The notes below the pieces were generated by a model. It did not search any database and was not told the DNA's origin. It saw only the letters and a program-made list of their open reading frames with translations. The position numbers and the translations under genes are program-made. Below, piece after piece: positions 290 to 44,085 of a stretch of DNA of 64,000 bases (positions are counted from its first letter, which is position 1; each line of letters starts with the position of its first letter). This stretch comes from a virus: positions 7,866-71,865 of IMG/VR virus record IMGVR_UViG_3300050034_000187; one strand, written 5' to 3'.

Positions 290-1984
290 TTATTTTTTAT
301 GTCTTTTTGCTGCTGACCATGGGCCAGCAATGAATGATTCTGATATTCCGCACTCGCAAACTTCTTTGCCGCATTTTTCACATTTCTCTTTATCACAAAT
401 ACAAGGATCTTTGTGACACTTTGGACAAATAGATTCATCACACTCTGATTCATTAATTGCTTTATAACAATCTTTGCAATATGCTACATGCTTTTCAGAA
501 TCTTTATCTTTGCTACATTTATTACATAGTTTATCTTTACATCTACGGCAAGTATATTCTGAAATTCTATTACCGCATTGATCGCATAATGTATGTTCAG
601 TTACACTTTCTGAAACTTCTTTACTTCTCATTAAACGATATTTTTCTTCATATTTTTTACGAAGTTTCTTATGAAATTCATACATATCATAATTACCTTT
701 CTTTTGATAAAATTCTTCAAGATAACCATGTTCTTTTATTTTCTCTGAAATATCTGCCAATGGGGTTCCAGATTTGCAGCATCCAAGGGTACATTCCGAT
801 GATTCTTTAATTTTTCCAAATTTATTTTTTTGTTTTGCACGGATCGCAAAATTAACTTGTTTCAATCTTTTAGAATCCTTATCACTTTTCTTTTCTTTTT
901 TATCTAATCGAGTTTTTTCCTTTTTTAATTCTGCAATAGTCCAACCATCCCACATGCCTTTATCTTTCTTGGAAGTATGCATCTCTTCATCCCATGACTC
1001 ATTGACTGATTTAACGAATTTGGAAAGGTCTTTATTATATGCAATAATATTATTTGGATATTTTGTAATAATAAATTGTCTTAACGTATTAATCCATGCT
1101 TTTCTGGCTTCTTCTTTCGTAAGTCCTTCCATTGAAAGGGATTGAATTTTAAATGGTTTGTTATTTATAGTTATATTTGCAATGCCGATAAACGCATTAT
1201 CCATTCCCGGAATAATGCTAATTTTAATAACCTTGATTTTCGAATTTCTATTTTTAATCATAGATACTAACTGCTTTATTTTTGGAATTCCATAATCAAC
1301 TACATTGTTATATGCACTATCGGCTGCATTGGCTGCTGAATTATATACATCGTGTGCTTTATCGGATATAGCTTCATCCCATGCTTCTTTAATTTCATTA
1401 TCTGAATTAATCCATTTTCCGTACCAAGGCAATTCATATGCAAGGTCTTTGCTCGAATAATATGTAGGGGTATCACTCCATCCACCAACGGTATTACTAT
1501 TCCAATATTTTCCTGTTTTTATATTTTTAATTATCCAATTTCTTTTTAATGATTTGTCATTGGATTCTTCATCAATAATGCCACGAAGTTTTGCCAATTG
1601 ATCAGCTAATGATTCTTCAACTTTATTATCAAAATTTGGTTTTTTGGGTTCTTTCGATGGTTCGGCATCTTTTGGTTCAGACGGGTCCTTTGAATCCGCT
1701 GTCTTTGGAGCAGATTCCTTGGTGGGCGGGGTTTTTGAACTTCCAGAATAGATTGATGCCGCATCGCTGGTAGTATCGCCTTCATAGTCTCCATATTCGC
1801 AGCAATCTTCATCCTCTGCTCCAACGAATCCCCCCGAAGTTGATTTTCCCATTGTGTAAATAGAAGCATTTTTTGCTTGGGCGCTTGATTCAATTTTTGG
1901 CATGCCCGGAGGATCTACTAATCCAAGATTTGTTCCTTCTGCTTCCAAAATAATTTGATGTAATTTTTGCAAACTATCTGACAT
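290..1984 (-). CDS. Modular putative internal head protein (564 aa) with many [ILV]-x-E|[AS] sites and a Cys-rich C-terminus
   Basis: ORF between gp21 and the gp22-like gene; low-complexity linkers; CxxC clusters near the C-terminus. Confidence 0.5.
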   Translation of the reverse strand: MSDSLQKLHQIILEAEGTNLGLVDPPGMPKIESSAQAKNASIYTMGKSTSGGFVGAEDEDCCEYGDYEGDTTSDAASIYSGSSKTPPTKESAPKTADSKDPSEPKDAEPSKEPKKPNFDNKVEESLADQLAKLRGIIDEESNDKSLKRNWIIKNIKTGKYWNSNTVGGWSDTPTYYSSKDLAYELPWYGKWINSDNEIKEAWDEAISDKAHDVYNSAANAADSAYNNVVDYGIPKIKQLVSMIKNRNSKIKVIKISIIPGMDNAFIGIANITINNKPFKIQSLSMEGLTKEEARKAWINTLRQFIITKYPNNIIAYNKDLSKFVKSVNESWDEEMHTSKKDKGMWDGWTIAELKKEKTRLDKKEKKSDKDSKRLKQVNFAIRAKQKNKFGKIKESSECTLGCCKSGTPLADISEKIKEHGYLEEFYQKKGNYDMYEFHKKLRKKYEEKYRLMRSKEVSESVTEHTLCDQCGNRISEYTCRRCKDKLCNKCSKDKDSEKHVAYCKDCYKAINESECDESICPKCHKDPCICDKEKCEKCGKEVCECGISESFIAGPWSAAKRHKK

Positions 1985-1992: not shown

Positions 1993-2637
1993 TTATAGCT
2001 TCTTTAAATCTCTAATAACATTTACCAGAGATTCTTTAATATATTTTTGTACTTTTGGATCATATTGCGCGTCAATGGCAGTGTTATATGCTTTATAACC
2101 ACCCTTTGAATTTAGAAGACTTTCATAGACTGGAACAGGATAGGCATTTGGCGCTGATGGTGTTGCAACGACGTCCACGGTCGTAATAAAAAATTCACTT
2201 ACCATTCCGGTAGATTCATTAACACTGCCGGACCCTCGGCTAGATACTCCGAGCGGAACACCGTCTTCAAGAATAGCACGCACAATATTTCCCATTGGGG
2301 TGGATAAAATTTTCAATTTACCATAACCATCTGATTGTTCCATCCACATTTTGGTGATTGCATGAGATGCCCGTTCTGGAGCAATTTGCAAACTATCAGG
2401 ATGGCTTAATTCACCGAGAACGGGGTGGCCATTTGTAATTTGGTCGTTGATTTCGGTTACGGCTCTTTGAATTTCCCCGAATGGATAAATTCGTTGATTT
2501 TGGTTTCTAACATCGCCTTGAATGCAGATTCCATTCATATATAAATGTTTCTTTTTTTGTCCTGTGAAATCCGTTTCTTCTAGTAATTCTGTTTTCATAG
2601 AAGAAACCATTTGATATTCTAACAAGTTTTGCTTCAT
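1993..2637 (-). CDS. gp21: Prohead core protease (T4 gp21 family)
   Basis: NQNQRIYP, GELSHP (catalytic His), GVSSRGSGS (catalytic Ser), DVVATPSAPNAYP; TAAATA late motif upstream. Confidence 0.92.
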   Translation of the reverse strand: MKQNLLEYQMVSSMKTELLEETDFTGQKKKHLYMNGICIQGDVRNQNQRIYPFGEIQRAVTEINDQITNGHPVLGELSHPDSLQIAPERASHAITKMWMEQSDGYGKLKILSTPMGNIVRAILEDGVPLGVSSRGSGSVNESTGMVSEFFITTVDVVATPSAPNAYPVPVYESLLNSKGGYKAYNTAIDAQYDPKVQKYIKESLVNVIRDLKKL

Positions 2638-3417: not shown

Positions 3418-4764
3418 ATGGGTATTAAACTAACAAAAGAACAGTTTATTAAACGGGCCATTGATAAACATGGAAATAAGTATAGATATGATAAACTTAT
3501 TTATTTTGGAATGGGCAAGAAAGTAGAAATATTCTGCAATAAATGTGGGATATACTTTTGGCAACGGGCAGGTGATCATTTAAGTGGAAGTGGATGCAAA
3601 ATTTGCGGTGGAGTTCTGGTATATGATACTGCATCATTTATATTAAATGCACTTAAAATACATGGAATAAAATATAATTATGACAATGTTACTTATATCG
3701 GCACTGACGAAAAAATAAAAATATATTGTAATGCATGTAATAAATATTTTTCGCAAACCCCCAATGCTCATATAAATGGAAAGCAAGGTTGTCCTAGATG
3801 CGCAAATATTAATACTGGAATAAAGCAAACCATGACGTTAGAAGAATTTATTGAAAGAGCCAAGAAAACTCACGGAGATAAGTATTCTTATTCAGAATGT
3901 GAATACATAGACGCGCACGAGAAGGTGAAAATATATTGCAATACTTGTAAACGATTTTTTCAGCAACGGGCATATTGCCATTTGCAAGGAGAAGGCTGCA
4001 ATATTTGTGGAAGAAAGAAGGCAGCGAAAAGTAATACTTTGGAAAAAGAAAAGTTTATAGCAAAAGCTAAAAAGAAACATGGGAACAAATATAATTATGA
4101 TAAAGTTGTTTATATCGCAAATCACAGCAAGATTGAAATTTTTTGTAATACCTGTAAAAAGGTTTTTTGGCAAGAACCCGCAGCACACGCGGGAAAATCT
4201 GGAGAGGGCTGTCCTTATTGCATTGGAAAATATAAAACCACCGAAGAATTCATAATAGAAAGTAAAGAAATTAATGGTGAAGATACATTTTCTTATGAAA
4301 AAGTAAATTATATTGATCAAAAAACTCCGGTAGAACTATTTTGTAATAAATGTAAGCAGTATTTCTCTCAATCTCCGAAAAGTCATTTAAAAGGAAATGG
4401 ATGTTCAAAATGTAACGAATCACATGGAGAAAAATATATAAGAAAGTTATTAAAAGACGGGAACTATAATTTCAAATCACAGCAGGGATTTCCCAAATGT
4501 AGACACAAGAGAATGCTTCGATTTGATTTTACAATATATAATGATACTTCGGTAATCGGAGTTATTGAATATCAGGGAGCACAACATTATAAACCAATTC
4601 CATTCTTTGGCGGGGAACCAACGTTACAAGAAAATAAACTTCGCGATTCTATTAAAGAAAAGTATTGCAACAATAATAATATTCCCCTTTGCATTATTCC
4701 ATATACAGAACGAAATTTATCAAAAATATTATTTGATTTTTTGAAACAAATACAAAAAGACTAG
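3418..4764 (+). CDS. Free-standing homing endonuclease: repeated Zn-ribbon units plus C-terminal PD-(D/E)XK nuclease
   Basis: Five HG.KY.Y...Y.....KV.I.C..C...F.Q....HL.G.GC..C repeats; RFDF...IEYQGAQHY nuclease motif. Confidence 0.85.
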   Translation: MGIKLTKEQFIKRAIDKHGNKYRYDKLIYFGMGKKVEIFCNKCGIYFWQRAGDHLSGSGCKICGGVLVYDTASFILNALKIHGIKYNYDNVTYIGTDEKIKIYCNACNKYFSQTPNAHINGKQGCPRCANINTGIKQTMTLEEFIERAKKTHGDKYSYSECEYIDAHEKVKIYCNTCKRFFQQRAYCHLQGEGCNICGRKKAAKSNTLEKEKFIAKAKKKHGNKYNYDKVVYIANHSKIEIFCNTCKKVFWQEPAAHAGKSGEGCPYCIGKYKTTEEFIIESKEINGEDTFSYEKVNYIDQKTPVELFCNKCKQYFSQSPKSHLKGNGCSKCNESHGEKYIRKLLKDGNYNFKSQQGFPKCRHKRMLRFDFTIYNDTSVIGVIEYQGAQHYKPIPFFGGEPTLQENKLRDSIKEKYCNNNNIPLCIIPYTERNLSKILFDFLKQIQKD

Positions 4765-4800: not shown

Positions 4801-6009
4801 TTACTTTACTGCGCCTTCAATAGGTCCTTTGTTGGACTTTTCTGGCTTTGTTTTTGCCTTGGCTGCTGGCTTCAACTTTGCCTTTCCGCCCGGACGGTTT
4901 TGAATTTCTCCGGAAAACATCTCTTTTGGTGTTGGTGCAGGTCGGCCTTTTTCGGTTGCATTTTGTGCAATATTTTTTGGGCCAACTCCCTTTACAATTT
5001 CATTTTTACCGGCAACTGGAGATTTCTTACCAACAAAATCCGCTTCAGCAGAAGTCGATAATCCACGAGTTACTTTTTCAACATATTCGCGAATCAGATT
5101 TTCAGATACAGGCTCTTCATCATCTGACGGAAGTTCTACCGATTCATCATCTTCGTGAACCTCTTCGGTATCGTCATCTTCATCGTTTTCGGTGTCGTCG
5201 TCGTCATCGTCTTCCGATGCTTCATGTTCAGAAAAATCAAAATCCTCGTCGTCCCCTTCTTCGGATTCAAGGTCATCTTCAACCTCTTCATCATCGTCAG
5301 AAGCAGTATCAAGGTCTTCGGCTTCTTCTGCATCACCCTCAGCGTCAGACCCGGCTAATTCTGCGGTCTCTGCACGAAGTTGTTCAAATTCCGATTTCAA
5401 TGAATCTAGTTCATCTTCTAGATCGGTTACGCGCTCTTCCTCGGGAGGATTAAGCTCATCACCGCCATGTAGACCTTCATTATCGCCGTCAATATCAAAG
5501 CTATCATCCTTAACTTCATCTTCAAAGTCATCAGTTTCATCACCACCAATAACTTCATCTTCGTCTGGATCAACATCACCGGAATGATCACTGTTGACTT
5601 CATCAAAAGCGCGTTCAGATTCATCGGATTCTCTAATTTTTTTGGGAATTGAAATTCCATATGTGAGCTTTCCGTATCTATAAGCGGACCTAATATCTTT
5701 AAAAGTTTTTACGGATGGCGGAATAGATTCATCTTCGCCATTTGATTGATAACTCAATTTAAATTTTACTTTACAATCTCCTCTTGCTGGATCATAAATA
5801 ATTACTCGTACTCGGTCGCCACTTCCCAACTCATACGTTTTATCAAATGCAAAACCTTGTTCATAGTTATAATCAGGTTCATCTAAATCAAAGTCTTCAT
5901 AAATCTTGCGACTCATTCCAACCACAATATTATGAAAAAGAGCACGAGCACTCTTCTCATCACCGTTAACAACATGTTCAACTAATTTATCAAATTTCTT
6001 GGATGCCAT
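4801..6009 (-). CDS. Acidic prohead scaffold/core protein
   Basis: MASKKFDKLVEHVVNGDEKSARALFHNIVV, ERVTDLEDELDSLKSEFEQL, long D/E tract; lies between portal and gp21. Confidence 0.65.
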   Translation of the reverse strand: MASKKFDKLVEHVVNGDEKSARALFHNIVVGMSRKIYEDFDLDEPDYNYEQGFAFDKTYELGSGDRVRVIIYDPARGDCKVKFKLSYQSNGEDESIPPSVKTFKDIRSAYRYGKLTYGISIPKKIRESDESERAFDEVNSDHSGDVDPDEDEVIGGDETDDFEDEVKDDSFDIDGDNEGLHGGDELNPPEEERVTDLEDELDSLKSEFEQLRAETAELAGSDAEGDAEEAEDLDTASDDDEEVEDDLESEEGDDEDFDFSEHEASEDDDDDDTENDEDDDTEEVHEDDESVELPSDDEEPVSENLIREYVEKVTRGLSTSAEADFVGKKSPVAGKNEIVKGVGPKNIAQNATEKGRPAPTPKEMFSGEIQNRPGGKAKLKPAAKAKTKPEKSNKGPIEGAVK

Positions 6010-6061: not shown

Positions 6062-6289
6062 TTAAATTCCACCACCAGCATTTTCTGGTGATTGCCCAAA
6101 CTGCCTACGAACATTTTCAAGATTTGTTCTTAATTCAAAATTACGAACATCTCTAATCAATCTCATGCGTGAAATCATTCCCAATGTTAACTTAGTCTTT
6201 CTTAGATCAGTCAATTTAGGAACTGTTTGATCTTGTTCAGGATCATAATAGTTTTCTTCGTCTTGATCGAACAACTCATTCAATACCAT
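6062..6289 (-). CDS. Small head-region protein
   Basis: 75 aa with RKTKLTL...R.IRD; TAAATA-N5-ATG start. Confidence 0.5.
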   Translation of the reverse strand: MVLNELFDQDEENYYDPEQDQTVPKLTDLRKTKLTLGMISRMRLIRDVRNFELRTNLENVRRQFGQSPENAGGGI

Positions 6290-6293: not shown

Positions 6294-7676
6294 TTATTTA
6301 TCCTTTTGATTCAAAACTTTACCATTATCCCACAATTCGTTGAATAACTCGGTATATTGCGGTTCTCTATCAACATGAATATATTTACCCACCAATGGAA
6401 TTAATTTTTCATTAGTACTAGATACAACTTTCCAATCCGGAGGATTTTTTAAATCAGTCATCCATTTAATATCATTTTTTGGAATTCCTTTAGCAATTCT
6501 CATATCATTATTTCCATTAAATCCTTTCATGAGAAATATATAATATCGTTTCGAAAAAAGCGTTACTTTATTAATAGTAGTTGGAGAAAGTAATATTGTA
6601 CCGTTTTCCCAAAGATTTTTTGCAAATGATATGGCATTTTCTGAGCCACAATTAGAAAATTTTGTTCCAATTTTCGGAGCATTTAAAAACATTCGTTCAG
6701 TTGTCTCTACTACTTTCCAATCAAAATCAGACAATTTCTTTTCAATATAATCTTTTTGCGCAGTATTTATTTTTCCCAAAGAATGTGCTACTAAATAATT
6801 ATCTCCTTCTTTTACAATTAATAAATTAAAAGGTTTATCCACTTCCGCAATAACATCTTTTTGATCAGATATTTTAGTTACAAAATCTTTACCATATTTA
6901 TCATTAAATACTTTGGCAAAATCTTCAAAATACTTTCCATGAGGAGTAATATATTTCTTTACAATTGCTTTATATTGTTCTACTCCATACTTAGCTAAAG
7001 TGGGAAGATGTACAAAAAGAAATTCTTGATGATGACATAATTCATGGGCCAAAGTTCTTTTAGTGGTATATTCATCTTGCAATATATATTGCTGAAGAGA
7101 AATAGTAGTATTGGGCTTACCCGGAGTCCAAACATCTTGGGCTAACCAATTAGAACGTACTTGATTAACATATTTAATTTCTGGTCTTGGTAATGTTTTG
7201 GGAAGTAGAGATAGCAGTTCATCAAGAATAACATCAACATTTACAAATTTTGATTTATCATATGCTTCGATAAGTAATTCGTCAATCATCTTATTTTCAT
7301 TTATCGGAATCCAATCTCCATGTTGCTTATACGCTATTAATTTTATATTATTATTTGGCTTAATACATATTTCCTTCTCATTCCAATTATAAGTAACATT
7401 TTGAATAAAGGTGGTTTCCCAATCTATATCATCTTCCTTTGCCCTTGCTTTAATAATAGTAGGAGTGTGTCTGTCAGAACCATAATAAGGAATGGCATAT
7501 TTTATATCATTTGTCCAACTCGTCCCAATATTATCTCGGTTAATACAATTAATATCCCGGGATATCGCTCGATAAAGTACTAATGGAAATGATAATGATG
7601 ACCTCAGATTAGTCATTTTATGATAATCATTATCATCTGGATCAAAGTCTTCTAAAATTATTTCATTAATTCTCAT
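6294..7676 (-). CDS. MRINEI-tag protein: ADP-ribosyltransferase-like domain plus SprT-like zinc metalloprotease
   Basis: True start MRINEIILE at 7676; LYRAI...IGTSWT...EKE (R-S-E-like); TLAHELCHH...PHGKYF (HExxH plus distal His). Confidence 0.62.
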   Translation of the reverse strand: MRINEIILEDFDPDDNDYHKMTNLRSSLSFPLVLYRAISRDINCINRDNIGTSWTNDIKYAIPYYGSDRHTPTIIKARAKEDDIDWETTFIQNVTYNWNEKEICIKPNNNIKLIAYKQHGDWIPINENKMIDELLIEAYDKSKFVNVDVILDELLSLLPKTLPRPEIKYVNQVRSNWLAQDVWTPGKPNTTISLQQYILQDEYTTKRTLAHELCHHQEFLFVHLPTLAKYGVEQYKAIVKKYITPHGKYFEDFAKVFNDKYGKDFVTKISDQKDVIAEVDKPFNLLIVKEGDNYLVAHSLGKINTAQKDYIEKKLSDFDWKVVETTERMFLNAPKIGTKFSNCGSENAISFAKNLWENGTILLSPTTINKVTLFSKRYYIFLMKGFNGNNDMRIAKGIPKNDIKWMTDLKNPPDWKVVSSTNEKLIPLVGKYIHVDREPQYTELFNELWDNGKVLNQKDK

Positions 7677-8608
7677 TATACTTCTCCAACTATTACAACA
7701 TAGCACCACAAAGAGGTTAATCCTAGTTGCTTTGCTACTCTATATCTATGATTTCCGTCTACTATTTCTCCATCCCATACGACGAGAGGAGGTATAGTTT
7801 GCGATGATTTTTTAATATATCGCTTTTCTTTTGCTTCACTGCGAACATTTGAATCAGCGTTTCCTTCATGAACAGAGTTAATAGGAATATTCTTCAGAAC
7901 TGCTTGGCATCCACGAAAATATTCACTAATAAATTCTTCATTGACATAGCTACTACTTATAGATGATATATACTCAGCAATAGCATCAGCATCCTTTAAT
8001 ATATGAGAATATTGATTACTTAGCAATCTAGTATTTTTATTTTCTGTAATATTGCTACTATTCGGGCTAAATGTTCCCTTATTACCAATAGCTGATTTTA
8101 TTTGGGTTGGAGAAAAGACCGCAACCACGTGAGAAGTTTTCCATGGGCCAACCGTATTTATTGAACCGTCTTTCATATTTCTAAAAATAATAGAATCGCA
8201 TCCTTCTTCTTTCGCTTCTTTGATCGCTGCTTGCAACCATGATTCTTCATATGCACCACCAAACTTATCCCAAATCTGTGGGTTCTCCATTTTAAGATAA
8301 ACTGGCATAATATTTGCACCACGAAAATATGTTTTATCAACCGTCTTTTTATCTTTCGTAGTATACATATATCCAGCAAAATCATCTGCTACTTCTACCG
8401 AACTGGTGAAGAAAAAAGCTTGATCGGTATCTTCTGCTAAAGTAGAGGAGCCGCCCTTCTCTGATAAAAACTCATCAAATGACTCGGTTGTACCATGATA
8501 AAAAATAATTGGATTCCCACTAGAATCTTTTGATATAGAATTACCAAACCATTTCTTAAATGATGGATTATCTAAAATACTTTCTCGAATTATTTCATTA
8601 ATTCTCAT
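7676..8608 (-). CDS. MRINEI-tag protein: ART-PolyVal-type ADP-ribosyltransferase-like domain plus ParB/Srx-like domain
   Basis: FKKWFGNS...IFYHGT...FFFTS...GANIMPVYLK...QIKSAIGNKGTF; C-terminal IPPLVV...IVDGNHRY. Confidence 0.72.
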   Translation of the reverse strand: MRINEIIRESILDNPSFKKWFGNSISKDSSGNPIIFYHGTTESFDEFLSEKGGSSTLAEDTDQAFFFTSSVEVADDFAGYMYTTKDKKTVDKTYFRGANIMPVYLKMENPQIWDKFGGAYEESWLQAAIKEAKEEGCDSIIFRNMKDGSINTVGPWKTSHVVAVFSPTQIKSAIGNKGTFSPNSSNITENKNTRLLSNQYSHILKDADAIAEYISSISSSYVNEEFISEYFRGCQAVLKNIPINSVHEGNADSNVRSEAKEKRYIKKSSQTIPPLVVWDGEIVDGNHRYRVAKQLGLTSLWCYVVIVGEV

Positions 8609-9254
8609 CTTGTCTCACCGATTTATATGCAAGCAACCTAATATTATTAATACTTATTAATGACTTATGTAATTTATCAATTTTATTTTGTAAGTTAGCA
8701 AGTTTTATAGAATCTTTACCAACCTCATCCTTTTCATGTTCAAAATCTGCAATTTCATCATCAATCTCAGATGACCAAACATCATTATTATATGGTTGCT
8801 CTGGGTCTATTTGAAATGTTTGCTTTGACCGGGTATTATATCCAACAACGTCAATTCCCGGAACCTTCATTAACTTTTCCCAAATGCTTCTTCCTCCAAC
8901 AGATTGCGTGATATCTGATACAATTCTATAATTTAATTTTTTAATTAAAAAACTATACAATTTTATTGGTAACTGCATTCCTCGATGTGACTTAACAACC
9001 CCTATTCGTTCTATGCAAAATAATCCTGTGTATTTATTACTACCTTGGCATGCCATTACTACTTTCTTGTTTGACTTATCAATTAAAAAGAAAAATAATT
9101 GCTGCGCTTTTTTAGTAACAACTAAAAAATCCCCAATAGAACCAACTACACTTTTATACGCCCCAGCAGGAGAATCACTAACAATATTATTAAATAACAA
9201 ATTAGTATTTGGTACATCATCCGGAGACAACATTACTATTTCATTGATTCGCAT
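8598..9254 (-). CDS. MRINEI-tag protein with GNAT-like acetyltransferase fold
   Basis: IGVVKSHRGMQLPIKLYSFLI...IVSDITQSVGGRSIWEKL resembles phage GNAT motifs A/B. Confidence 0.55.
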   Translation of the reverse strand: MRINEIVMLSPDDVPNTNLLFNNIVSDSPAGAYKSVVGSIGDFLVVTKKAQQLFFFLIDKSNKKVVMACQGSNKYTGLFCIERIGVVKSHRGMQLPIKLYSFLIKKLNYRIVSDITQSVGGRSIWEKLMKVPGIDVVGYNTRSKQTFQIDPEQPYNNDVWSSEIDDEIADFEHEKDEVGKDSIKLANLQNKIDKLHKSLISINNIRLLAYKSVRQDEN

Positions 9255-10128
9255 CTTCATCCTCGGTGATATTCAAGCTATTGGTAGAAAAAGTTCCCTT
9301 ATTGCCTATGGAAGATTTTATTTGATTAGCATTCCAAACAACATAATGAGTTGTTCCTGCTGGCATATTTTTCATATTCCAATGCGTAATTGAGGTATCC
9401 AATATGATTCCATCAAATCCCATGATTTTATAAATATCAGAAAGAACTTCTCCTGCTGATAGATCATTGTCCATTAAGTCGTCATGTTCTCTAACTGCTG
9501 CTTCAAAATCGTCAGCGGAACAACCATCATATAATTGAGATGATTCTTCAACTTGCTCCCATATATTTTGATCCCCAACCACTCTCATAAAAGCATCATA
9601 TAATTCAGAACCAGAACCACTTTCTTCTCCGGTGCCTTCATCATAATCTAATTCAAAATAAGTTCCACCTTTAGCAGAAAGAATAACAGGCTTTTCTATT
9701 TTTAAATAGCATGGCATAATGTATCTTTTTACAGGACCAACTAATTCTTGCTTAGCTTGTGCTTTCGATTTTCGTTCTAATGCTTTATATTTTGAACTAT
9801 TATAATCTGGAAAATCTTCTGAATTATCTTCCCATTCAGCCATAATATTTTCCGAACGTAAATCAAGTCTACTTTTAAGGTCTGGGCCAATACCAGAATA
9901 ATTTTTATCGGCATCTCTTGGAGAGCTAGTAAAATAATTCGCAGCACCATGATAGCCTTCTTTATCACCATTACCATACCCAAAAACCGAAAAATTATGA
10001 GTAGTACCATGATAAACCCGCAACGGTTTTCCAGATTTATCAACTACTTTTGAATTACCAAACCAAGTTTTGAAAGCGGGAGTATCCGCCATATTCACAT
10101 ATTCTCTTAATAACTCTTTGATTTTCAT
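9241..10128 (-). CDS. MKIKEL-tag protein with ART-PolyVal-type ADP-ribosyltransferase-like domain
   Basis: FKTWFGNSKVVD...VYHGT...YFTSS...IMPCYLK...GFDGII...QIKSSIGNKGTF; paralog of 7676-8608; TAAATA at 10136-10141 (minus). Confidence 0.72.
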   Translation of the reverse strand: MKIKELLREYVNMADTPAFKTWFGNSKVVDKSGKPLRVYHGTTHNFSVFGYGNGDKEGYHGAANYFTSSPRDADKNYSGIGPDLKSRLDLRSENIMAEWEDNSEDFPDYNSSKYKALERKSKAQAKQELVGPVKRYIMPCYLKIEKPVILSAKGGTYFELDYDEGTGEESGSGSELYDAFMRVVGDQNIWEQVEESSQLYDGCSADDFEAAVREHDDLMDNDLSAGEVLSDIYKIMGFDGIILDTSITHWNMKNMPAGTTHYVVWNANQIKSSIGNKGTFSTNSLNITEDEDANQ

Positions 10129-10138
10129 ATAATACTAT

Positions 10139-11311
10139 TTATAAGATTTCTGAAATAAATTTTTCTATTATTATATTCATATTATTCTGATCACTGTATT
10201 TAATTGATAATAGAGGTATGTTATTTTCAGAACAATACTTTATTTTAATGATATCCCTATTCTTATTTTCTTTAAATGATAATGCAATATCATCCTCGTT
10301 CATATGATAACTCCACTGAACAGGTTCATAATGTTGTTTTCCATTATATTCAATTGCCCCAATAATTTTATCATTTTCATATAGTATAAAATCAAATCGC
10401 AATAATCGTTTACTGATACATCCAGCCAAAGTTCCTTGCTCAATGAAGTCCATATTATATAATTTTAAAAGTTCCTTAACCTTATATTCCCCCTTTGAGC
10501 GTTTACAATGCGGACAGCCATTTCCAGTCAAATGATGATTTGGCGTTTGCCAGAAATATTCTTTGCAATAATTGCAATATATTTTTCCTTTAATATTTGA
10601 TTTAATATAAACGAAATCAGAATAATCATATCTTTCAAGATGAATACTATTAGCCATATCAACAAATTGCTGTTTGGTTAATCTCTTACTTAATCCTCTT
10701 TTTTGCAATGAACAAATAGGACAGCCCTCTCCATTAATATGATTGGCCGGAGTTTGAAAAAAATAATTTTCACATTTTAAACATTTGATTTTTCCTTTGA
10801 TATTGTATCCAAGATACTCGAACATTTCATAAGAATATGATGAATGAACTGTATTAAATATTGATATGATTTCTTCTTGTGAGTATTTTTTATTAATTCC
10901 CGCTTCTTTCATTGCGCAAGTCGGGCAATTCTGCCCAGCCAAATGTTTGCTAGGTGACTGCTTAAAATATTTTTTACAAGTTTTACAATAAATATTTCCG
11001 GTAGTATTATAATTAATATATTTAAAAGAACTATACTCATATTTTTCACCATGTATATGTTTGGCTTTTGTGATAAATTCTTGTAAAGAATACCGAAGGT
11101 TATTGCTTGCTTTTATAACTGCGCAATTTTTGCACCCATTCTTGCTATTCAAATGAGCATCCATGGTTTGAAAAAAATATTCATGGCATACAGTACAATA
11201 TATTTTGCATTTTGTTTTTGCATTGACATAATTTAAATCGTTGTATAAATATTTTTCACCATGTACTTCCTTGCATTTAATCAATATTTCATCTAATGTA
11301 TGTTTTTTCAT
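10139..11311 (-). CDS. Free-standing homing endonuclease (Zn-ribbon repeats plus PD-(D/E)XK)
   Basis: Same repeat architecture as 3418-4764; RFDF...IEYNGKQHY; start overlaps the portal stop (ATGA). Confidence 0.85.
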   Translation of the reverse strand: MKKHTLDEILIKCKEVHGEKYLYNDLNYVNAKTKCKIYCTVCHEYFFQTMDAHLNSKNGCKNCAVIKASNNLRYSLQEFITKAKHIHGEKYEYSSFKYINYNTTGNIYCKTCKKYFKQSPSKHLAGQNCPTCAMKEAGINKKYSQEEIISIFNTVHSSYSYEMFEYLGYNIKGKIKCLKCENYFFQTPANHINGEGCPICSLQKRGLSKRLTKQQFVDMANSIHLERYDYSDFVYIKSNIKGKIYCNYCKEYFWQTPNHHLTGNGCPHCKRSKGEYKVKELLKLYNMDFIEQGTLAGCISKRLLRFDFILYENDKIIGAIEYNGKQHYEPVQWSYHMNEDDIALSFKENKNRDIIKIKYCSENNIPLLSIKYSDQNNMNIIIEKFISEIL

Positions 11312-13038
11312 ATGGCGGATTCTGGCCCTCCACCGCCTGTGGCCGATGGGCCAGTCGTCTCATCTGATGCGCCTTCTTCTCCAGCCATAGTTTCTTCTGG
11401 CATTTCTCCTTCCTCGCCATTTCCCATTGCTGGAAAATTTTGCATATCAGAGTCTATACTTCCAGAAGTAACTCCCAAATCCCGAAGATTTCCATTCTCA
11501 TTATCCAACGCATTCAAATCCATTGTTTCTTCGCGATGTAGCTTTGCATTCTCGTTCATTTCATCTTCATTTAATCCAAGATATCTTTTCATTAAGAATC
11601 TTTTTGACATAAATGGAAATCCTGCCATTTGAGAAAAAATATTAATTCTGGCTGCATCTTGCTCAGTTTGACGATATTGAGCAAAATTCTGAGGAGGATT
11701 AAACGTTAGCTTAAAGATGCTAGTATCAATCGTTACTCCGCACCATTTTAAATATGCTTTAAATTCTAAATCTAATAAATCACAAATCAATCTTTGCAAT
11801 CTCTCACAATATCTATTGAAACAATATTCTTGAATTAAAGCAATACCAACTTTTCCGTCATTTACTGCTTGTGTTCCATCCTCTGCTCCAGTAGGAATAT
11901 ATGAAGAAGGAATTTGTAATCCTCTAATTAATTTATTATCAAAATATCGAAGATCATTTATTTCACCTAGATTCATACCTTCATTTAATTGAGTAATATC
12001 TGTTCCTTTTCCAGACGAAGAAATTGGCAAAAAGAAATCTTCATTAATTGCCATACTTTGATAAGAAGTATCTACAAACTTTGATCCATTCGGACCCATT
12101 GTTGGAATTCTTCGTTGATATAATTCATTTTTTAACTTCTCAACATATGCCTGTGCTTGATAGCTTGGCATTTCTCCAACATCAATTTTAAAAACTCTTC
12201 TAGCTGGCGCTCTTTGAATACGATATATAACAATACTATCTTCCAGCATTTCTTTTTGCTTATATACTTTAAATACCGATTCTAAAATACTAGTGCCAAA
12301 TGGCCAATTTGCATCAAGTCCTTCTGTTAATGATAAATGCAAAATATTACTTGCATCAATTGGAGTTTCACTTTTTCCTAATGCAAATCTACTTGAACTA
12401 GAATATGGATTATTTGGACTATTGAATGAATCTCCATTGGAAGAATATCCCGGTCCGGCTGGAATCATATTAAACATGTCTTCGGAATTTACTTGTGTGG
12501 CAGTGAGATTCTGAAAATTCATGTTTAGATTTCTAATAACATATTGCTCTGGTTTCTTTCCCTTCGATTCATTTACAATTACCTTGATTACATTATCCAT
12601 TTCTACATAATGCAATTTAAATGTTTCTGGATCACGCAAAAATACTTGGTCACCATACTTCAACACATTGCGAAAAATTCTAAAAATTCTCTTATGGAAT
12701 TCATTAAGATAATACCAAGATTCTAGCCGATCCTTGATAATCGTGGTTTCTGTTTCCGTTGCTTCTTCTTTATAATTAATTTTGAAACATAATCCAGTGG
12801 ATTCATCTTCCTGAGTGGAAAATTGAGAAATAATATCCATTGCCGTGGCAATTGTTGAATCCAATCCCATTATTTCCAATTCTTGATAACGCTGGACACG
12901 ATTATTACATCCTAAGTAGCTTTCTTTCAACAAGTTAGGGTATTGCCCAACTGAAGGAGATGCATTTCTTTTTCCAGCCCGATGACTAAGTGGACTACGG
13001 GTAGAAGATGTACTTTTAAAATATTTTTTCCAACTCAT
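11308..13038 (-). CDS. gp20: Portal protein (T4 gp20 family)
   Basis: EDSIVIYRIQRAPARRVFKIDVGEMP, EDFFLP, GTDITQL, NLGEINDLRYF, LQIPSSY are hallmark gp20 motifs. Confidence 0.93.
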   Translation of the reverse strand: MSWKKYFKSTSSTRSPLSHRAGKRNASPSVGQYPNLLKESYLGCNNRVQRYQELEIMGLDSTIATAMDIISQFSTQEDESTGLCFKINYKEEATETETTIIKDRLESWYYLNEFHKRIFRIFRNVLKYGDQVFLRDPETFKLHYVEMDNVIKVIVNESKGKKPEQYVIRNLNMNFQNLTATQVNSEDMFNMIPAGPGYSSNGDSFNSPNNPYSSSSRFALGKSETPIDASNILHLSLTEGLDANWPFGTSILESVFKVYKQKEMLEDSIVIYRIQRAPARRVFKIDVGEMPSYQAQAYVEKLKNELYQRRIPTMGPNGSKFVDTSYQSMAINEDFFLPISSSGKGTDITQLNEGMNLGEINDLRYFDNKLIRGLQIPSSYIPTGAEDGTQAVNDGKVGIALIQEYCFNRYCERLQRLICDLLDLEFKAYLKWCGVTIDTSIFKLTFNPPQNFAQYRQTEQDAARINIFSQMAGFPFMSKRFLMKRYLGLNEDEMNENAKLHREETMDLNALDNENGNLRDLGVTSGSIDSDMQNFPAMGNGEEGEMPEETMAGEEGASDETTGPSATGGGGPESAI

Positions 13039-19614: not shown

Positions 19615-20265
19615 ATGAGTATAATTGCAGTATCAGGTTTTATTGGATCAGGCAAGGGATTTTTTTCGGATTATTTACAAAGTACTTATAAATTTAAACA
19701 TATATCATTTGCCGAGTCATTAAAGAAAAGTATTTCTGAAATTTTTGGATGGGATTACGAACTTTTAAAGGGAACTACTTCAGAAAGTAGAGAATGGAGA
19801 GAACAAATTGATCCATGGTGGTCCAAGCGATTAGATATTCCCAATCTAACTCCTAGATTAGTTTTACAAATTGGTGGAACTGATTTATGGAGAAATGGAT
19901 TTCATCAAGACATTTGGATTGCTTCCTTGGAACGAAAATTACAATCAATGTCTAATGATAATATTGTAATTGATGATTGCCGCTTCCCAAATGAATTCAA
20001 AACATTACATTCTATTGGTGCTACCATTGTAAAAATAACCAGAGGGAATAATCCAGAATGGTATAATACCGCATTCAATGAATTATCTTGGATAGAAGAA
20101 CGGGGTTATGAAACTGGTTGGGAAAGTCCTATGCAAAGAAAATATCCAAATATCCATTACTCAGAATGGGCTTGGATTACTCAACACTTTGATAAAGAAC
20201 TTTATAATAATGGAAACAAAGATGAATTTATTAACACCATTGATGAATTCATGAAAACTTTATAA
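19615..20265 (+). CDS. Deoxynucleoside monophosphate kinase (T4 gp1-like)
   Basis: SGFIGSGK P-loop, SFAESLK, TPRLVLQIGGTD, VIDDCRFPNE. Confidence 0.9.
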   Translation: MSIIAVSGFIGSGKGFFSDYLQSTYKFKHISFAESLKKSISEIFGWDYELLKGTTSESREWREQIDPWWSKRLDIPNLTPRLVLQIGGTDLWRNGFHQDIWIASLERKLQSMSNDNIVIDDCRFPNEFKTLHSIGATIVKITRGNNPEWYNTAFNELSWIEERGYETGWESPMQRKYPNIHYSEWAWITQHFDKELYNNGNKDEFINTIDEFMKTL

Positions 20266-21397
20266 TATTATGCAAAAATCTAGCTATATCAAAACAAATA
20301 TTTTTATTGGTATATTTTAATATTAATAATGGAATATGCTTATCTTCACAGAATGTATACTTGGAATTATCTCTATTCTTTGTTAATTTAAATTGCTCCT
20401 CACATTCTGTTTTATTTTTTCCAAACGATGGAATATAGTGCTGCCTTCCATTATATTCTATAGCACCAATTACTTTTTCATTATTCATAATAAGAAAATC
20501 AAAATGCAATGGTAATTTGTATCTGCAACCTTCGATGGTTTGCTGTTCGGAGAAAGCAATTTTGTACGAAGATAAAATATTTCTTACCGCCTCCTCTCCC
20601 TTTGAATTAACTTTGCAAATGGCACATCCATGTTTTCTCGTAATATGAATTGACGGCGACTGCAAAAACCATTTTTGGCAGTTTTTACAAAATATTTTCA
20701 TCTTCGTGGTCATATTAATAAAAGTTGATTCATCATATTCATACTTATCACCATGTATTTCTTTGGCACAATACATAACTTCTTTAAATGTTTTATTTTT
20801 CCCGGCACAATATGGACACCCACTTTTTTGATTAATATGATCTGCTGGATTTTGAGAAAAAGTCTTATGGCACCTATTGCAATATAACTCCACGGGAGTA
20901 TGATTATTTTTATATATAACATTGGAATAATCATACTTATTTTCATGAATGCATTTTGCTTTTAAAATAAATTCTTCCCGAGTTGATTTATAATTTCCCA
21001 CACATTTTATACAGCCTTTTCCAGCACTAATATGATTAGATGGGGTTTGATGCAAAACATATCCACAAGTATTGCAAATTATAATTACCGGCGAATTCAT
21101 ATTAACATATTCAACTTGAGAATAATCATATTTATTTCCATGAATCGCTTGCGCCTCTATTAAGAAATCATACAATGATTTCTGCTGTAATTTCCGCATA
21201 GAAATCATACCGCACTGATAACATCCACATCCTTTTAAATGATTAGTTGGTATTTGCTCAAACATTCCATGAATAGGACATATAATTTTTATTTTATTTT
21301 TATTTCCGACATATTTTAATAAACTATAATCATACTTATTTCCATGAATAATGATTGCTTCTGTTATAAATTTTTCTTGCGTCTTCTTGTGCCCCAT
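20249..21397 (-). CDS. Free-standing homing endonuclease (Zn-ribbon repeats plus PD-(D/E)XK)
   Basis: HGNKYDYS repeats; HFDF...IEYNGRQHY. Confidence 0.85.
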   Translation of the reverse strand: MGHKKTQEKFITEAIIIHGNKYDYSLLKYVGNKNKIKIICPIHGMFEQIPTNHLKGCGCYQCGMISMRKLQQKSLYDFLIEAQAIHGNKYDYSQVEYVNMNSPVIIICNTCGYVLHQTPSNHISAGKGCIKCVGNYKSTREEFILKAKCIHENKYDYSNVIYKNNHTPVELYCNRCHKTFSQNPADHINQKSGCPYCAGKNKTFKEVMYCAKEIHGDKYEYDESTFINMTTKMKIFCKNCQKWFLQSPSIHITRKHGCAICKVNSKGEEAVRNILSSYKIAFSEQQTIEGCRYKLPLHFDFLIMNNEKVIGAIEYNGRQHYIPSFGKNKTECEEQFKLTKNRDNSKYTFCEDKHIPLLILKYTNKNICFDIARFLHNIIKFS

Positions 21398-24832: not shown

Positions 24833-25771
24833 ATGTTATCAGATATTGAGTATTTTAATATTCTTGAACAAATTAACCTATCATATTTCGTGAGAGAAAT
24901 TAAAGCCAATGATGACCTACTTGAATGGATTAATAACAAGTCAGATCCAAAAATAGATAATTTACCATATAGTTTCGCAATAAGACTTCATACAAAGTGT
25001 TATCTTATTTTGCATCCAGAAGAATCTATTTATTGTGAATGCGGAAAACCACGAAAATATGAAGGAAAATTCAATAGATTAACCTGCGATGTGCATTGCC
25101 CTATAAAAGCAAAAATCGCTCGAAATACCTGCCTAAGAAAATATAATGTTTCTAGTCCAATGTTATTGCAAGAAGTAAAAGATAAACAAAAAGCTTCTAT
25201 TAAAAATCATTATGGTGTGGAGTATCCAATGCAATGCAAGGAACTTCGAGATAAAGCAGCAAAAACCAACTTAACGAAATATGGAACAAAATTTGCCACA
25301 CAATCAGAACAAGTGAAAGAAAAAACTATAAAAACTAATATGGAAAGATATCATGTTAAAAGTACTGCACAAGTTCCAGAATTTCGAGAAGCACAAAAGA
25401 AAACATTATGGGAGCATTATCATGTAGAATCCCCGTTGCAATCAAAAGAATTAATGGAAAAATTCAAAAATACAAATATTGAAAGATATAATACTCCTTG
25501 GGCAATTACATCAAAGGAAGTACAAGATAAATCCAATAAAACAAAAATGGATCGATACCACACTACTTCGATGTCATCTGTTCCAGAAATATGTGCTAAG
25601 CAAGTTGCTACCAGAAAAGAAACAATGTTGAAGAAATGTGGGAAAGAGCACGAAAGCCAAGTTCACATAAGTGATGAAAGCTATGAAGTTTTAAATGATC
25701 CTATAAAATTTTCAGAGATGCTAATTAAATATGGTAAACCAATAATGGCACAATTATTGGGCGTTGAATGA
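24833..25771 (+). pseudogene. Homing endonuclease N-terminal repeat region, lacking the nuclease domain
   Basis: KY.V..P.Q..E.K.K...TN..RY repeats typical of phage HEG N-termini; ends abruptly overlapping the converging ORF. Confidence 0.55.
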
Positions 25772-28454: not shown

Positions 28455-28508
28455 AATCATAACCTTATCACATATTAAATGAACATTCAAATGTACATAA
28501 ATAGTATT

Positions 28509-41575: not shown

Positions 41576-42493
41576 CTAGCAAGAGTATTTAGTCACTTCA
41601 TACGTTTCCGCAGTATTATAACTCTTTTTGATTGGGATCAAAATGTTATTGATCTTGGACCGAGAAGATGTGCGAAAAGTATCATAAATGATATTGTCAA
41701 TGCAAGCAATTGCATGATTGCGAGTTGTCATAATGCAACGCTTTGGAAGCAGACCGGATTCCATCCACCATCCAAGAGTTTTCTTTCTACCAATGGTTGA
41801 AATAATTGATGCAGTCACAAAATATTCAAAGGGAAGATCGCGTGTTTTGGTGATCATTGAAATTCTGGTTGAATGCCCCATTTTTCTTCCCTGTTTTGTC
41901 AAGGCATTGTGCGCTAGTTTGTAGCTGCATCCTCCGGCAATTGCCAGCGCTCTTACTCCGCAATCATTGTCTTCATTTGGATAATCCACGCTTCTTCCTC
42001 CATCGCTATAAACATAACTGTAGTTATTTTTCGGCTTTGCGATGGAAGGTGTTTTAACGTTCTTCTTTCGAGTATTTTCTCGGCGAACATAGCGAGAAGT
42101 CTTTTTCTGAGAAATAAGCCAAAGTTCATTTTTCTCATACGTGCGGTATCCAGCTTTGAAATTGTACAATGTGAAAAAATTGTTTTTTGAACTAACAATT
42201 TCGGATCGAATGCTACCGAGGTACAAAATATCATTGATTCGAAGTGAATCCAGATCCTTGCTGGAAATATGCATGGTAGAAGTGCCGCGAGTTTTCGCAT
42301 TTTCAGCATGAACAAGCCGACTCAGATAAAGCTGCTCCGGAGTAAAATGACGATACATGCCATCATTGGTAATCAAAATATATTTCAGAGAATCTCCGAG
42401 AATTTCATTCACCAAATATCGAGTGCTGTTCATATAGATGATATCATTTACCTTGATGGACTCGACATTTGCTGAATTGATTACCTCTGCCAT
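41576..42493 (-). CDS. Hypothetical protein with C-terminal papain/C39-like Cys-His-Asp region
   Basis: NDCGVRALAIA...RNHAIACID..IYD; promoter TTGCAT-17-TATAAT (42549-42521). Confidence 0.45.
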   Translation of the reverse strand: MAEVINSANVESIKVNDIIYMNSTRYLVNEILGDSLKYILITNDGMYRHFTPEQLYLSRLVHAENAKTRGTSTMHISSKDLDSLRINDILYLGSIRSEIVSSKNNFFTLYNFKAGYRTYEKNELWLISQKKTSRYVRRENTRKKNVKTPSIAKPKNNYSYVYSDGGRSVDYPNEDNDCGVRALAIAGGCSYKLAHNALTKQGRKMGHSTRISMITKTRDLPFEYFVTASIISTIGRKKTLGWWMESGLLPKRCIMTTRNHAIACIDNIIYDTFRTSSRSKINNILIPIKKSYNTAETYEVTKYSC

Positions 42494-42551
42494 GTTGTAC
42501 TTTCTCCTCTCAACAAAACAATTATATCAATATTAAGAATATTATGCAAGA

Positions 42552-42579
42552 AAAATCCTCATAATATTATGAGGATTTT
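42552..42579. terminator. Terminator abutting the next promoter
   Basis: 28-bp perfect palindrome. Confidence 0.75.
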
Positions 42580-42584
42580 GAATA

Positions 42585-43034: not shown

Positions 43035-43046
43035 GTTCCCTCCTGT

Positions 43047-43301: not shown

Positions 43302-43493
43302 ATGCATATTAATGAAGTGACTGGTCATATTCCGAAAAATGAAAAAGAAGCAAATGATCCTCGATACAAAACTGGATTGACTCAAGATGTTGGTATTCGA
43401 GAACCGCAAAAACAAGCCAAAAAATTTGGTAATTCATTGGATGACAATGGCCTTCCGCCATTATTGAATACCAATGGAAATTTGGATAAATAA
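43302..43493 (+). CDS. Small late protein with MHINEV tag
   Basis: TAAATA-N5-ATG. Confidence 0.55.
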   Translation: MHINEVTGHIPKNEKEANDPRYKTGLTQDVGIREPQKQAKKFGNSLDDNGLPPLLNTNGNLDK

Positions 43494-43497
43494 TTAT

Positions 43498-44085
43498 ATG
43501 ACGATATCAGAATTATTAAACGAATCAATTCATGATCGATATGCTTTTCGAGCAATTTTTATTGTGGGTGCTCCCGGTTCTGGAAAGAATTATATTCAAA
43601 GTAAATTGAATTTGGAAGCTGCTGGATTTAAAACTTTGAATATAGATTACGTAAAATATTATTTACAGCAGCATGATTATGATGCTGCTGGAAAAGCGAC
43701 CAACGCACAGCTTAGAATGTATCTTTCGCAGAATCTTGGATTGATTTTTAATATGACTGGACGAGATGATACTAAAATTTTAAATACAAATACCATTCTT
43801 GAAAATAATCATTATGAAACCGCGATGGTTTTTGTAGATGCCGATATTGAGACTTCTTTGAAAAGAATTGAAAATAGAGAAATGCATTCTGATATTCCCG
43901 AAGATAGAAGGAAAGTTGATTTGGGTTATTTTAAATCAACGTTTGATGAAGTTCATAATAAAATAAACGTATATAAAACTATATTTGGGAATAATTTCTT
44001 TTATATTAACAATGGAGAGTTAACACAAGAAACTTTTCATAAATTGGAACAGCAAATTAATAGGTTCTTGAAACGTAGGAATTAA
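43498..44085 (+). CDS. P-loop kinase (zeta-toxin/AAA_33-like) with MTISELLNE tag
   Basis: AIFIVGAPGSGKN, NID, A.VFVD...SL.R..NR; TAAATA-N5-ATG. Confidence 0.7.
   Translation: MTISELLNESIHDRYAFRAIFIVGAPGSGKNYIQSKLNLEAAGFKTLNIDYVKYYLQQHDYDAAGKATNAQLRMYLSQNLGLIFNMTGRDDTKILNTNTILENNHYETAMVFVDADIETSLKRIENREMHSDIPEDRRKVDLGYFKSTFDEVHNKINVYKTIFGNNFFYINNGELTQETFHKLEQQINRFLKRRN

Follow-up and report, generated by a model that had tools for sequence, protein, structure and literature searches.

The DNA analysed here is a window of 64,000 nucleotides, positions 7,866 to 71,865 of the IMG/VR virus record IMGVR_UViG_3300050034_000187, and it carries on its minus strand, between the genes of the portal and of the head core, a cassette of four genes (g1 to g4, window positions 6294-10128) whose products begin with a short common N-terminal tag. 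We propose that this tag, M-[KR]-[IL]-x-E-[ILVF](-[IL]-x-E), is probably the phage's version of the capsid-targeting sequence (CTS) or propeptide of phage T4, used here with an unusually large enzymatic cargo. The initial annotation had seen in the four genes a system in which a short tag loads assorted enzymes into the head. In silico this idea is supported by the likeness to T4, an S77 protease, tagged head-core proteins, the at least six families that bear the tag and homologues found in the virions of phage Atu_ph07, but the system is genome-wide and not one of four genes. The record (195,761 bp, ~ 35% G+C, estimated to be 53% complete) belongs, as judged from its genes, to a jumbo-type myophage with a T4 core. 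Indeed, it encodes a T4-type portal (Portal_T4, 1e-92), a Gp23-family capsid protein (7e-96) and a Peptidase_S77 protease (1.6e-28), together with a long tail sheath, a tail tube and a large terminase, and among cultured phages it is closest to PA5oct-like Pseudomonas phages and Atu_ph07, with portal identities of 44-47%. Positions given without a prefix are those of the window.

Scanning the whole record for gene starts of the form M-x-[ILV]-x-E-[ILVF] gave at least 17 such starts, in at least six unrelated families, for this half-complete genome. Besides g1-g4 and a 75-residue head-core protein, the tag is found on a third ART-PolyVal ADP-ribosyltransferase (ART) copy (L001:3682-4389, 77.5 bits against the PF18760 cut-off of 31.2), five proteins of a family here called B, a Nudix hydrolase, a zeta-toxin-like kinase, a second SprT/metallopeptidase-like protein, a 147-residue protein and a DnaJ-type Zn-ribbon protein. 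The genome-wide count of such starts, suggested in the initial annotation as a check, was made with an unbiased gene caller, blind to the motif, and with 5000 column shuffles as the null. It returned 14 M.[ILV].E[ILVF] starts against 2.4 expected and a shuffle maximum of 10, and the strict form M[KR][IL].E[ILVF] was observed at 11 gene starts compared to one of 1285 internal methionines. All 17 proteins have [ILV]-x-E at residues 3-5, and g1, g3, g4 and the kinase have another at residues 7-9. The tag is conserved at the amino-acid level, since codons differ where residues agree (AGA or CGA for Arg, AAA or AAG for Lys, six codons for Ile/Leu, GAA or GAG for Glu).

The N-termini of T4 proteins, read directly from NC_000866, are MAKINELLRE/S for gp24, MELITELFDE for Alt, MKTYQEFIAE/A for the internal proteins (IPs) IPII and IPIII, MKTFKEF for IPI, MEGLIEA for gp67, MLKEQLIAEA for gp22 and ...LLIE for gp21. 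In T4, propeptides of 10-20 residues are CTSs (PMC5694885); the first ten residues of IPIII are enough to package foreign proteins (PMC9026906; PMC8442874), targeting depending on residues 4 and 7 and processing on residues 8 and 10, and both Alt and the IPs are ejected into the host (PMC9026906). As in the T4 system, proteins that are otherwise unrelated begin here with a peptide of about ten residues ending in [L/I]-x-E, and the phage has a T4-type portal, a Gp23-family capsid protein and an S77 protease. The genes lie in scattered islands that are presumably late here, and the T4 IP CTSs and this phage have in common the pattern M-[KR]-x-x-(x)-E-hydrophobic-[IL]-x-E. The closest sequence matches of the tag are the propeptides of gp24 and Alt, both of which gp21 removes in T4. 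KINELLRES of gp24 and RINEIIRES of g3 have six residues identical and three conservatively exchanged (K/R, L/I, L/I), g1 has KIKELLRE followed by Y, and ELFDED of Alt resembles NELFDQD of the 75-residue protein. Furthermore, Alt is a head-packaged, injected ADP-ribosyltransferase, the enzyme class of much of the predicted cargo here. The parallel has its limits: gp24 is a shell protein and not cargo, Alt falls in the R-S-E Alt/VIP2 clade but g1 and g3 encode ART-PolyVal proteins (Tox-ART-HYD2 clade according to PMC5512222), and no homology of the cassette ARTs to T4 Alt was detected. In addition, the T4 cargo consists of three small basic non-enzymatic proteins, for which T-even relatives swap similar small ones, whereas here half a genome already contains at least 17 tagged proteins, and where the family can be recognised these are mostly predicted enzymes of 150-460 residues. 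Unlike the T4 IPs, many tags have their sole [IL]-x-E at residues 3-5, and the system is known here from sequence alone.

The head module itself provides both the protease and tagged core proteins. On the minus strand, the genes run in the order portal, homing endonuclease, g1, g2, g3, g4, 75-residue protein, 402-residue protein, protease, 564-residue protein, scaffold and capsid protein, a plus-strand insert with another endonuclease interrupting this order between the 402-residue protein and the protease. The portal (11308..13038, minus strand) is of the T4 gp20 type (PF07230), is 46% identical to the PA5oct portal and forms the upstream border of the insertion discussed below. The prohead protease (1993..2637, minus strand) belongs to the T4 gp21 family (PF03420, 100 bits against a cut-off of 27; phrog_207, 2.8e-54). 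The 75-residue head-core protein (6062..6289, minus strand; phrog_13986, 1.6e-16), the positional counterpart of T4 gp67, starts with MVLNELF; the pattern M-x-[LIV]-x-E/D-[LFI]-[FY] is kept in 76 homologues of its family, and its PA5oct homologue gp150 (MKINDIITE) is annotated as structural and was detected by electrospray ionisation tandem mass spectrometry (ESI-MS/MS). The 402-residue acidic core/scaffold-like protein (4801..6009, minus strand) has LVE at residues 9-11 and is syntenic with PA5oct gp151, a structural protein, while the 564-residue protein between protease and scaffold (290-1984, minus strand) has ILE at residues 12-14 and no family match; its C-terminus is Cys-rich and its counterpart in the related locus L010 has only 242 residues. 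Indeed, an [IL]-x-E site lies within 14 residues of the start in every head-core protein of the phage (protease LLE-7, scaffold LLE-10, 564-residue protein ILE-14, acidic protein LVE-11, capsid protein LTE-8, 75-residue protein LNE-5) but not in the portal.

The description of the cassette as four coupled genes was borne out: g1-g4 are minus-strand open reading frames (ORFs) that overlap by 14, 11 and 1 nt and are therefore translationally coupled. Translation likewise gave the N-termini that had been noted, MKIKELLRE (g1), MRINEI(VM) (g2), MRINEIIRE (g3) and MRINEIILE (g4), and the two genes with 21 identical 5' nucleotides are g3 and g4, the shared segment being ATGAGAATTAATGAAATAATT. The product of g1 (9241..10128, minus strand; 295 residues) is a tagged ART-PolyVal ADP-ribosyltransferase with an insert of ~ 110 residues (PF18760, 2.7e-18, 67.5 bits against the cut-off of 31.2), and its translated tag, encoded at 10102..10128 on the minus strand, has IKE at residues 3-5 and LRE at residues 7-9, to be compared with MAKINELLRE of T4 gp24. 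Behind its NITE motif, the last residues (DEDANQ) are read in another frame from the overlapping nucleotides that encode the start and tag of g2 (9241-9260), and the short g1 tail is therefore probably a by-product of this overlap. The g2 gene (8598..9254, minus strand; tag MRINEI at 9237-9254) encodes a tagged protein of 218 residues with a diverged GNAT fold according to its family profile and model; an alternative ATG at 9260 would give MKMRINEI. In g3 (7676..8608, minus strand; 310 residues), the tag MRINEIIRE (8582-8608) is followed by an ART-PolyVal domain (8069-8527; PF18760, 5.1e-24, 86.1 bits against 31.2), an NITE motif (8042-8053) and a ParB-like domain with DGNHR (7694-7834). This last domain, with ~ 45 residues aligned and DGNHR present, matched phrog_620 (1.6e-5) and phrog_8071 (2.8e-3) and had no match in Pfam.

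The longest product, that of g4 (6294..7676, minus strand; 460 residues), combines the tag MRINEIILE (7650-7676), a small ART-like N-domain (~ 7287-7649), the junction IDELLIE (7266-7286), a SprT-like Zn-peptidase domain with HELCH (7032-7046) and two C-terminal repeats (~ 6297-6806). Its SprT-like domain (PF10263) scores 16.7 bits, under the cut-off of 25.6, while the orthologue P0005, 44% identical to g4 over this domain (from residue 131) and also containing HELCH, scores 34.1 bits and passes it. The N-domain (residues 1-150) gave DRAT, NarE and scabin as Atlas leads (0.77-0.88, template modelling score ~ 0.5), so that its ART-like character is only a lead. Thus, the domains first assigned to the cassette hold for the two ART-PolyVal domains and the diverged GNAT, probably for the ParB-like domain and, via the orthologue, for the SprT-like one, and only as a lead for the g4 N-domain. 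The linkers NITE, PINE and LLIE that had been noted between fused domains exist, but as evidence they count for little, the density of [IL]-x-E in these proteins being the genome average of 0.013 per residue. Only two such sites are conserved in position among relatives: the g4/P0005 junction, where homology starts exactly (IDELLIE/A in g4, LSESILNE/Y in the orthologue), and NI[TN]E after ART-PolyVal.

The g2 family shows how far the tag persists. g2 has no Pfam match of its own, stood alone in a word-indexed protein search and gave no tblastn match in cultured phages; exhaustive HMMER searching was needed for this reason and retrieved 249 relatives, for which a cluster look-up returned uninformative names (three 'hypothetical protein', the rest unnamed). 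GNAT Pfam models are matched by 15 of 69 aligned relatives (PF00583, best 4.5e-6). The AlphaFold2 (AF2) model of g2 has a predicted local distance difference test (pLDDT) score of 89.8, with residues 1-8 below 50 and outside the fold; its top seven Foldseek matches are all GNATs, which dominate the list at probabilities of 0.97-1.0 with weak E-values of ~ 2e-3, and its Atlas score to GNAT-bearing viral clusters is 0.96. By its modelled fold g2 thus belongs to the GNAT superfamily, and its enzymatic activity is only predicted. M1 and E5 are kept in at least 90% of the 69 relatives at identities of 20-36%, and some relatives are embedded in proteins of 700-2100 residues.

In order to place the cassette, 80 IMG/VR loci encoding portal relatives were compared, 76 of which have a recognisable portal ORF. 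The 75-residue gene is present in 73 of the 76, in 72 of these 73 it lies within ~ 29 nt of the portal end, and the protease is found 1.0-2.1 kb away; PA5oct has the compact portal/75-residue gene arrangement as well. Because portal relatives keep this gene directly after the portal, the cassette and its homing endonuclease are an extra, lineage-specific insertion, and its placement between portal and scaffold in the initial annotation was correct. The endonuclease (10139..11311, minus strand) has treble-clef Zn-finger repeats and a nuclease domain and matches the HNH endonuclease family phrog_559 (1.3e-66). Only one other lineage has an insert here, L010 (of the same phage type as L006; portal 65% identical), in which 4.1 kb encode an endonuclease and three tagged proteins: a 258-residue protein with MRIRELLRE, an ART-PolyVal with a second domain and MRIREIIKE, and a GNAT fused to a SprT-like domain and two C-terminal repeats with MKIFEVL. 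Site and tags are the same and the domain combinations are others, hence site and tags are conserved while domains are shuffled; the GNAT domain, for instance, is a free gene in this phage and fused in L010. A homologue of the homing endonuclease occupies the same place in L010/L006, and the phrog_559 endonuclease that flanks the cassette in both carriers may have mobilised it. In the other ~ 78 portal loci, no strict-tag ORF was found except for a spurious one, hence cargo genes, if these phages have any, would lie elsewhere.

Such shuffling, together with the 21 nucleotides shared by g3 and g4 and the endonuclease beside both cassettes, could also be read to mean that the common N-terminus has no function and was left behind when genes were duplicated and cassettes recombined at a conserved 5' segment. 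We regard this as highly improbable: families that are unrelated encode the tag with different codons, it varies in step with the phage lineage, and in the g2 family it has survived deep divergence. The tag-coding sequence is probably a site of recombination, yet this would be a consequence, as at the IP locus of T-even phages.

The evidence on the fate of tagged proteins comes from family B (phrog_12810/phrog_11975). This phage has five tagged paralogues, starting with MKINEI or MRINEV, at L001:14451-17091 (G000 110451-113091), L001:11842-12483 and window positions 44089-44754; the last of these (plus strand) starts with MKIDEVIL, matches phrog_11975 (2.6e-17) and is linked by BLAST to the other paralogues as an ART-fold-like protein. 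Alignment of the family shows an invariant [YF]RG, R65, R90 and S93 and a near-invariant C-terminal E. The AF2 model (pLDDT 80; residues 1-11 below 50 and outside the fold) had no significant Foldseek match in the PDB, while in a Foldseek-independent (VIA) structure search chains of the ART fold dominated the list, all at Z of 6.2 or less, among them Arr, diphtheria toxin, a KptA-like enzyme, PARP16, TreX, cholix toxin, tankyrase, CteC and DarT. Judging from the model, family B likely has an ART fold. Directly upstream of the window copy lie the tagged zeta-toxin-like P-loop kinase (43498..44085, plus strand; MTISELLNE; PF06414, 2.4e-7, 30.8 bits against a cut-off of 22.3) and a 63-residue ORF (43302..43493, plus strand; MHINEV), both starting with ATAAATA-N5-ATG. 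The kinase aligns to the middle of phrog_12810, the N-terminal part of which is family B, and because this profile continues into a zeta-kinase-like part in other phages, fused family-B/zeta-kinase forms are suggested to exist there. An island of NAD+/nucleotide-related genes interleaved with tagged genes was observed at L001:11337-14454 (G000 107337-110454), comprising a HAD-type nucleotidase-like ORF, a family-B gene, a nucleotidyltransferase-like ORF (GGYHPISPHH), a Zn-ribbon, a Dps-like ORF and the tagged Nudix hydrolase, which has an N-terminal extension of ~ 95 residues.

Homologues of family B are found in Atu_ph07 at 32% identity (E 2e-20), where gp54-gp63 (L005, record positions 41844-50592) form ten tandem homologues starting with M[RK]W[HEDQ]QL[TIN]E or, in one case, MRLFQLLE. 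Within this array, gp54 consists of two family-B units in one chain, and gp63 has an extra N-domain joined by ...SITE/TAEL, for which homology to g2 was considered and discarded (probability 0.2 in the comparison with the g2 profile). Purified Atu_ph07 virions have been analysed by ESI-MS/MS (PMC6102473), and Table S5 of that paper reports gp54-gp63 with 3-15 unique peptides each and coverages of 12-46%. The masses computed for the ten tagged ORFs (56.49, 29.65, 30.93, 30.16, 29.20, 31.19, 29.55, 29.96, 29.61 and 41.40 kDa for gp54 to gp63) match those of Table S5 to the second decimal. Since the table entries together with these exact matches fix their identity, all ten tagged homologues are virion proteins. 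In PMC6102473, they are listed only as hypothetical proteins, and their shared N-terminus goes unmentioned in the parts consulted. Re-read in this way, the published proteomics turns ten 'hypothetical' virion proteins into a tagged array of probable ART-fold enzymes. Atu_ph07 thus resembles this phage in family-B homology, in a short tag ending in L-x-E and in a T4-core head, and differs from it in the form of the tag (M[RK]WxQLxE), in having one tandem array of a single family and in that virion presence is experimental there. Three metagenomic homologues of family B start with MRYQNFLLE, MRFDAYIIQE and MRFEQYLSE, all closely resembling the T4 IP CTSs. By these comparisons, the tag appears to follow the phage lineage and not the protein family. 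Unrelated families with one tag per phage, and one family with different LxE tags across phages, are what would be expected of a signal that co-evolves with the head core and its protease.

Presence in virions bears on two further explanations. Short shared leaders are not specific to one mechanism, and the tag might be the recognition sequence of some other partner with many clients, such as a modifying enzyme, a chaperone or a degradation adaptor. We consider this very unlikely: no gene that could encode such a partner accompanies the tagged genes, the tag holds the S77 cleavage motif and matches known gp21 substrates, and head-core proteins are tagged too, while tagged homologues are found in Atu_ph07 virions. 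Somewhat less improbable, though still unlikely, is that the tag is a propeptide or core-binding signal on proteins that are not delivered but act in the prohead or on packaged DNA, or are degraded. Indeed, T4 gp67, gp68 and gp22, which have similar N-termini, are core proteins and largely degraded, ParB-like and ART-PolyVal domains could act on DNA, and the Atu_ph07 proteomics, as given in Table S5, documents presence in the virion and not injection. Simple degradation is nevertheless hard to reconcile with the retention of the homologues in mature Atu_ph07 virions; moreover, T4 ejects its Alt and IPs, the closest precedents, into the host (PMC9026906), and the same repertoire of domains occurs in proteins for which injection has been predicted (PMC5512222). 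Delivery, rather than packaging, is where the interpretation is most vulnerable, as virion presence does not prove injection.

The arrangement ATAAATA-N(4-6)-ATG, nearly always with N5, precedes 20 ORFs of at least 50 residues, as opposed to 0-6 for eight permuted heptamers, and these 20 include the large terminase, the tail tube, an 854-residue tail protein and the 75-residue head-core gene, whose box lies at 6295..6301 (minus strand), 5 nt upstream. In ten tagged genes, the box stands at exactly 5 nt from the ATG; that of g1 (10136..10142, minus strand) lies 7 nt upstream and so belongs to a wider N(3-9) set, outside the 20. Other sites are at 43290-43296 and 43486-43492 (both plus strand) and upstream of 15838 (minus) and of 28509, 40182 and 53902 (plus). 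As far as its sequence tells, ATAAATA-N5-ATG looks like a relaxed T4 late promoter, and because the box sits so near the ATG, late mRNAs would be nearly leaderless. The T4 late promoter proper, TATAAATA, was tried as the signal and rejected, with 14 and 15 copies against ~ 25 expected per strand; it is the relaxed, phased form that is enriched. That the cassette genes are 'late', as first described, is consistent with their orientation and coupling with head genes and with a signal common to terminase, tail-tube and head-core genes, and it rests on that signal and not on expression. The same arrangement was seen in an unrelated T4-like contig (L089:1852-1872), in which a GP88-family (PF17338) protein starting with MRWNEVIAEE stands behind an ATAAATA box (L089:7749-8900), a tagged family of another lineage; L010 has CTAAATA.

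The same pairing of box and start suggests another origin for the tag, namely as a feature of translation or transcription of nearly leaderless late mRNAs, whose A/T-rich first codons would be selected for initiation. Ten tagged genes with the box at 5 nt and g1 at 7 nt, the recurrence of the pairing in the other T4-like contig and the A/T-rich first codons all fit this idea. It fails, however, because coupled genes are tagged, other ATAAATA genes are not and conservation is at the amino-acid level: g2, g3, g4 and their L010 counterparts are internal, led by a Shine-Dalgarno sequence or coupled, yet tagged; other ATAAATA-N5 genes start with MASVKV, MATTIL or MAKFSE; and conservation follows amino-acid class across codons, with E5 kept in at least 90% of the 69 diverged g2 relatives. 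Furthermore, it leaves the likeness to cleaved T4 propeptides unexplained, and we give it little credence.

If the tag is a CTS as in T4, the tagged proteins would be made late in infection alongside the head genes and bound through the tag to the scaffolding core of the assembling prohead. The S77 (gp21-type) protease would then cut after the Glu of [IL]-x-E and remove the tag, and may also cut the conserved sites at domain junctions; the mature enzymes would remain beside the packaged DNA in the head and be delivered with it to the next host. The cassette would be one of the cargo loci, having entered the junction of portal and head-core genes along with a homing endonuclease. The cargo, predicted to be enzymes from their sequences, would comprise ART-PolyVal and other ART-fold proteins, GNAT, ParB-like and SprT-like domains, a Nudix hydrolase and a zeta-type kinase. 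For this phage, we infer that the tagged proteins are bound to the core, packaged, cleaved, kept in the head and injected, and that their targets are those of host take-over or anti-defence.

Several observations weigh against this interpretation. The phage is an uncultured IMG/VR contig, ~ 53% complete, and is known here by its sequence. Several tagged proteins have I-x-E only at residues 3-5, which implies a propeptide of five residues, shorter than any T4 example (Alt, 7 residues). The T4 baseplate proteins gp48 and gp54 also start with the pattern, so that the short motif is not exclusive to head proteins, and one or two of the 17 tagged genes are probably due to chance, e.g. MELAEIL on a 698-residue endonuclease-like protein. 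Internal [IL]-x-E sites are no commoner in the cassette proteins than expected by chance, and in PA5oct, the nearest cultured relative, the motif is not enriched (5 matches to the tag-coding pattern, 2 to the control). Finally, TATAAATA itself is not enriched, and no T4 gp55 late sigma factor was found in the record, a negative that is uninformative because the record is only ~ 53% complete.

The predicted cargo recalls the polyvalent proteins described by Iyer, Burroughs, Anand, de Souza and Aravind in 2017 (PMC5512222), with which it shares ART-PolyVal, ParB-like, Zn-metallopeptidase/SprT-like, GNAT, Nudix and zeta-type kinase domains as well as a location beside head genes; those proteins are likewise predicted to be packaged and injected. 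Polyvalent proteins string 2-15 disparate domains into one large polypeptide, and their release is attributed to a peptidase domain that they carry themselves. In contrast, g1 and g2 have a single domain and g3 and g4 two to three in 310-460 residues, and the genes here are mostly separate, of one to three domains, each with a CTS-like tag and presumably processed by the prohead protease. This suggests one delivery problem with two solutions, tagged single enzymes and polyvalent proteins. Another comparison is offered by phiKZ and the phiKZ-like phage SPN3US, in which a gp21-related protease also removes N-terminal propeptides after Glu and paralogues have identical N-termini, from which targeting was inferred by the authors. 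Their propeptides, however, are of 80-130 residues with the motif A/S/G-x-E, in another head architecture and phage group.

Part of this is already known. This applies to the T4 mechanism itself, to the general suggestion of T4 workers that the CTS lets T4-like phages incorporate various proteins (PMC9026906) and to the packaging of ARTs and Nudix enzymes encoded near head genes, argued for by Aravind and colleagues (PMC9503650). What is new is the size and enzymatic nature of the cargo, the polyvalent repertoire in unbundled form, the cassette in an otherwise invariant portal/core junction, the co-variation of tag and lineage and the link to the unexplained virion proteins of Atu_ph07. The experimental CTS mechanism of T4 and the computational repertoire of polyvalent proteins, so far treated separately, are thereby linked. 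The predicted arsenal centres on NAD+/ADP-ribose chemistry, with at least three ART-PolyVal proteins, five further ART-fold-like proteins and one Nudix hydrolase in half a genome. If the tag works as in T4, the injected proteins of an uncultured phage could be predicted from sequence, which would provide candidate enzymes of host take-over and counter-defence and natural tag variants for engineering protein delivery by T4-like capsids. A broader proposal, to which we lean slightly less than to its contrary, is that T4-core phages, including many uncultured jumbo phages, load dozens of enzymes via lineage-specific, predictable tags. This would be an 'unbundled' alternative to polyvalent proteins, in which the whole effector set is readable from the genome and cargo is gained by recombination at the tag, here with a homing endonuclease.

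Besides the copy that flanks the cassette, the phage has unusually many homing endonucleases of the same treble-clef-repeat family (phrog_559), several of which break up the head and tail modules. In the window, they are encoded at 3418-4764 (plus), 10139-11311 (minus), 20249-21397 (minus), 24833-25771 (plus) and 26856-28490 (minus), and further copies lie at L002:4330-5673 (minus) and L002:480-2576 (plus). Just outside the window, two copies of one gene pair were observed (G000 73937-75846 and 158884-160801), each made up of a serine-recombinase-like ORF (MKLSEYAKEKGITY / MRLKEYAKLQGITY) followed by an ORF of 429-433 residues (MLLIRSTNHSTK...) and each preceded by (T)ATAAATA; the pair looks like an element of the IS607/TnpB type.

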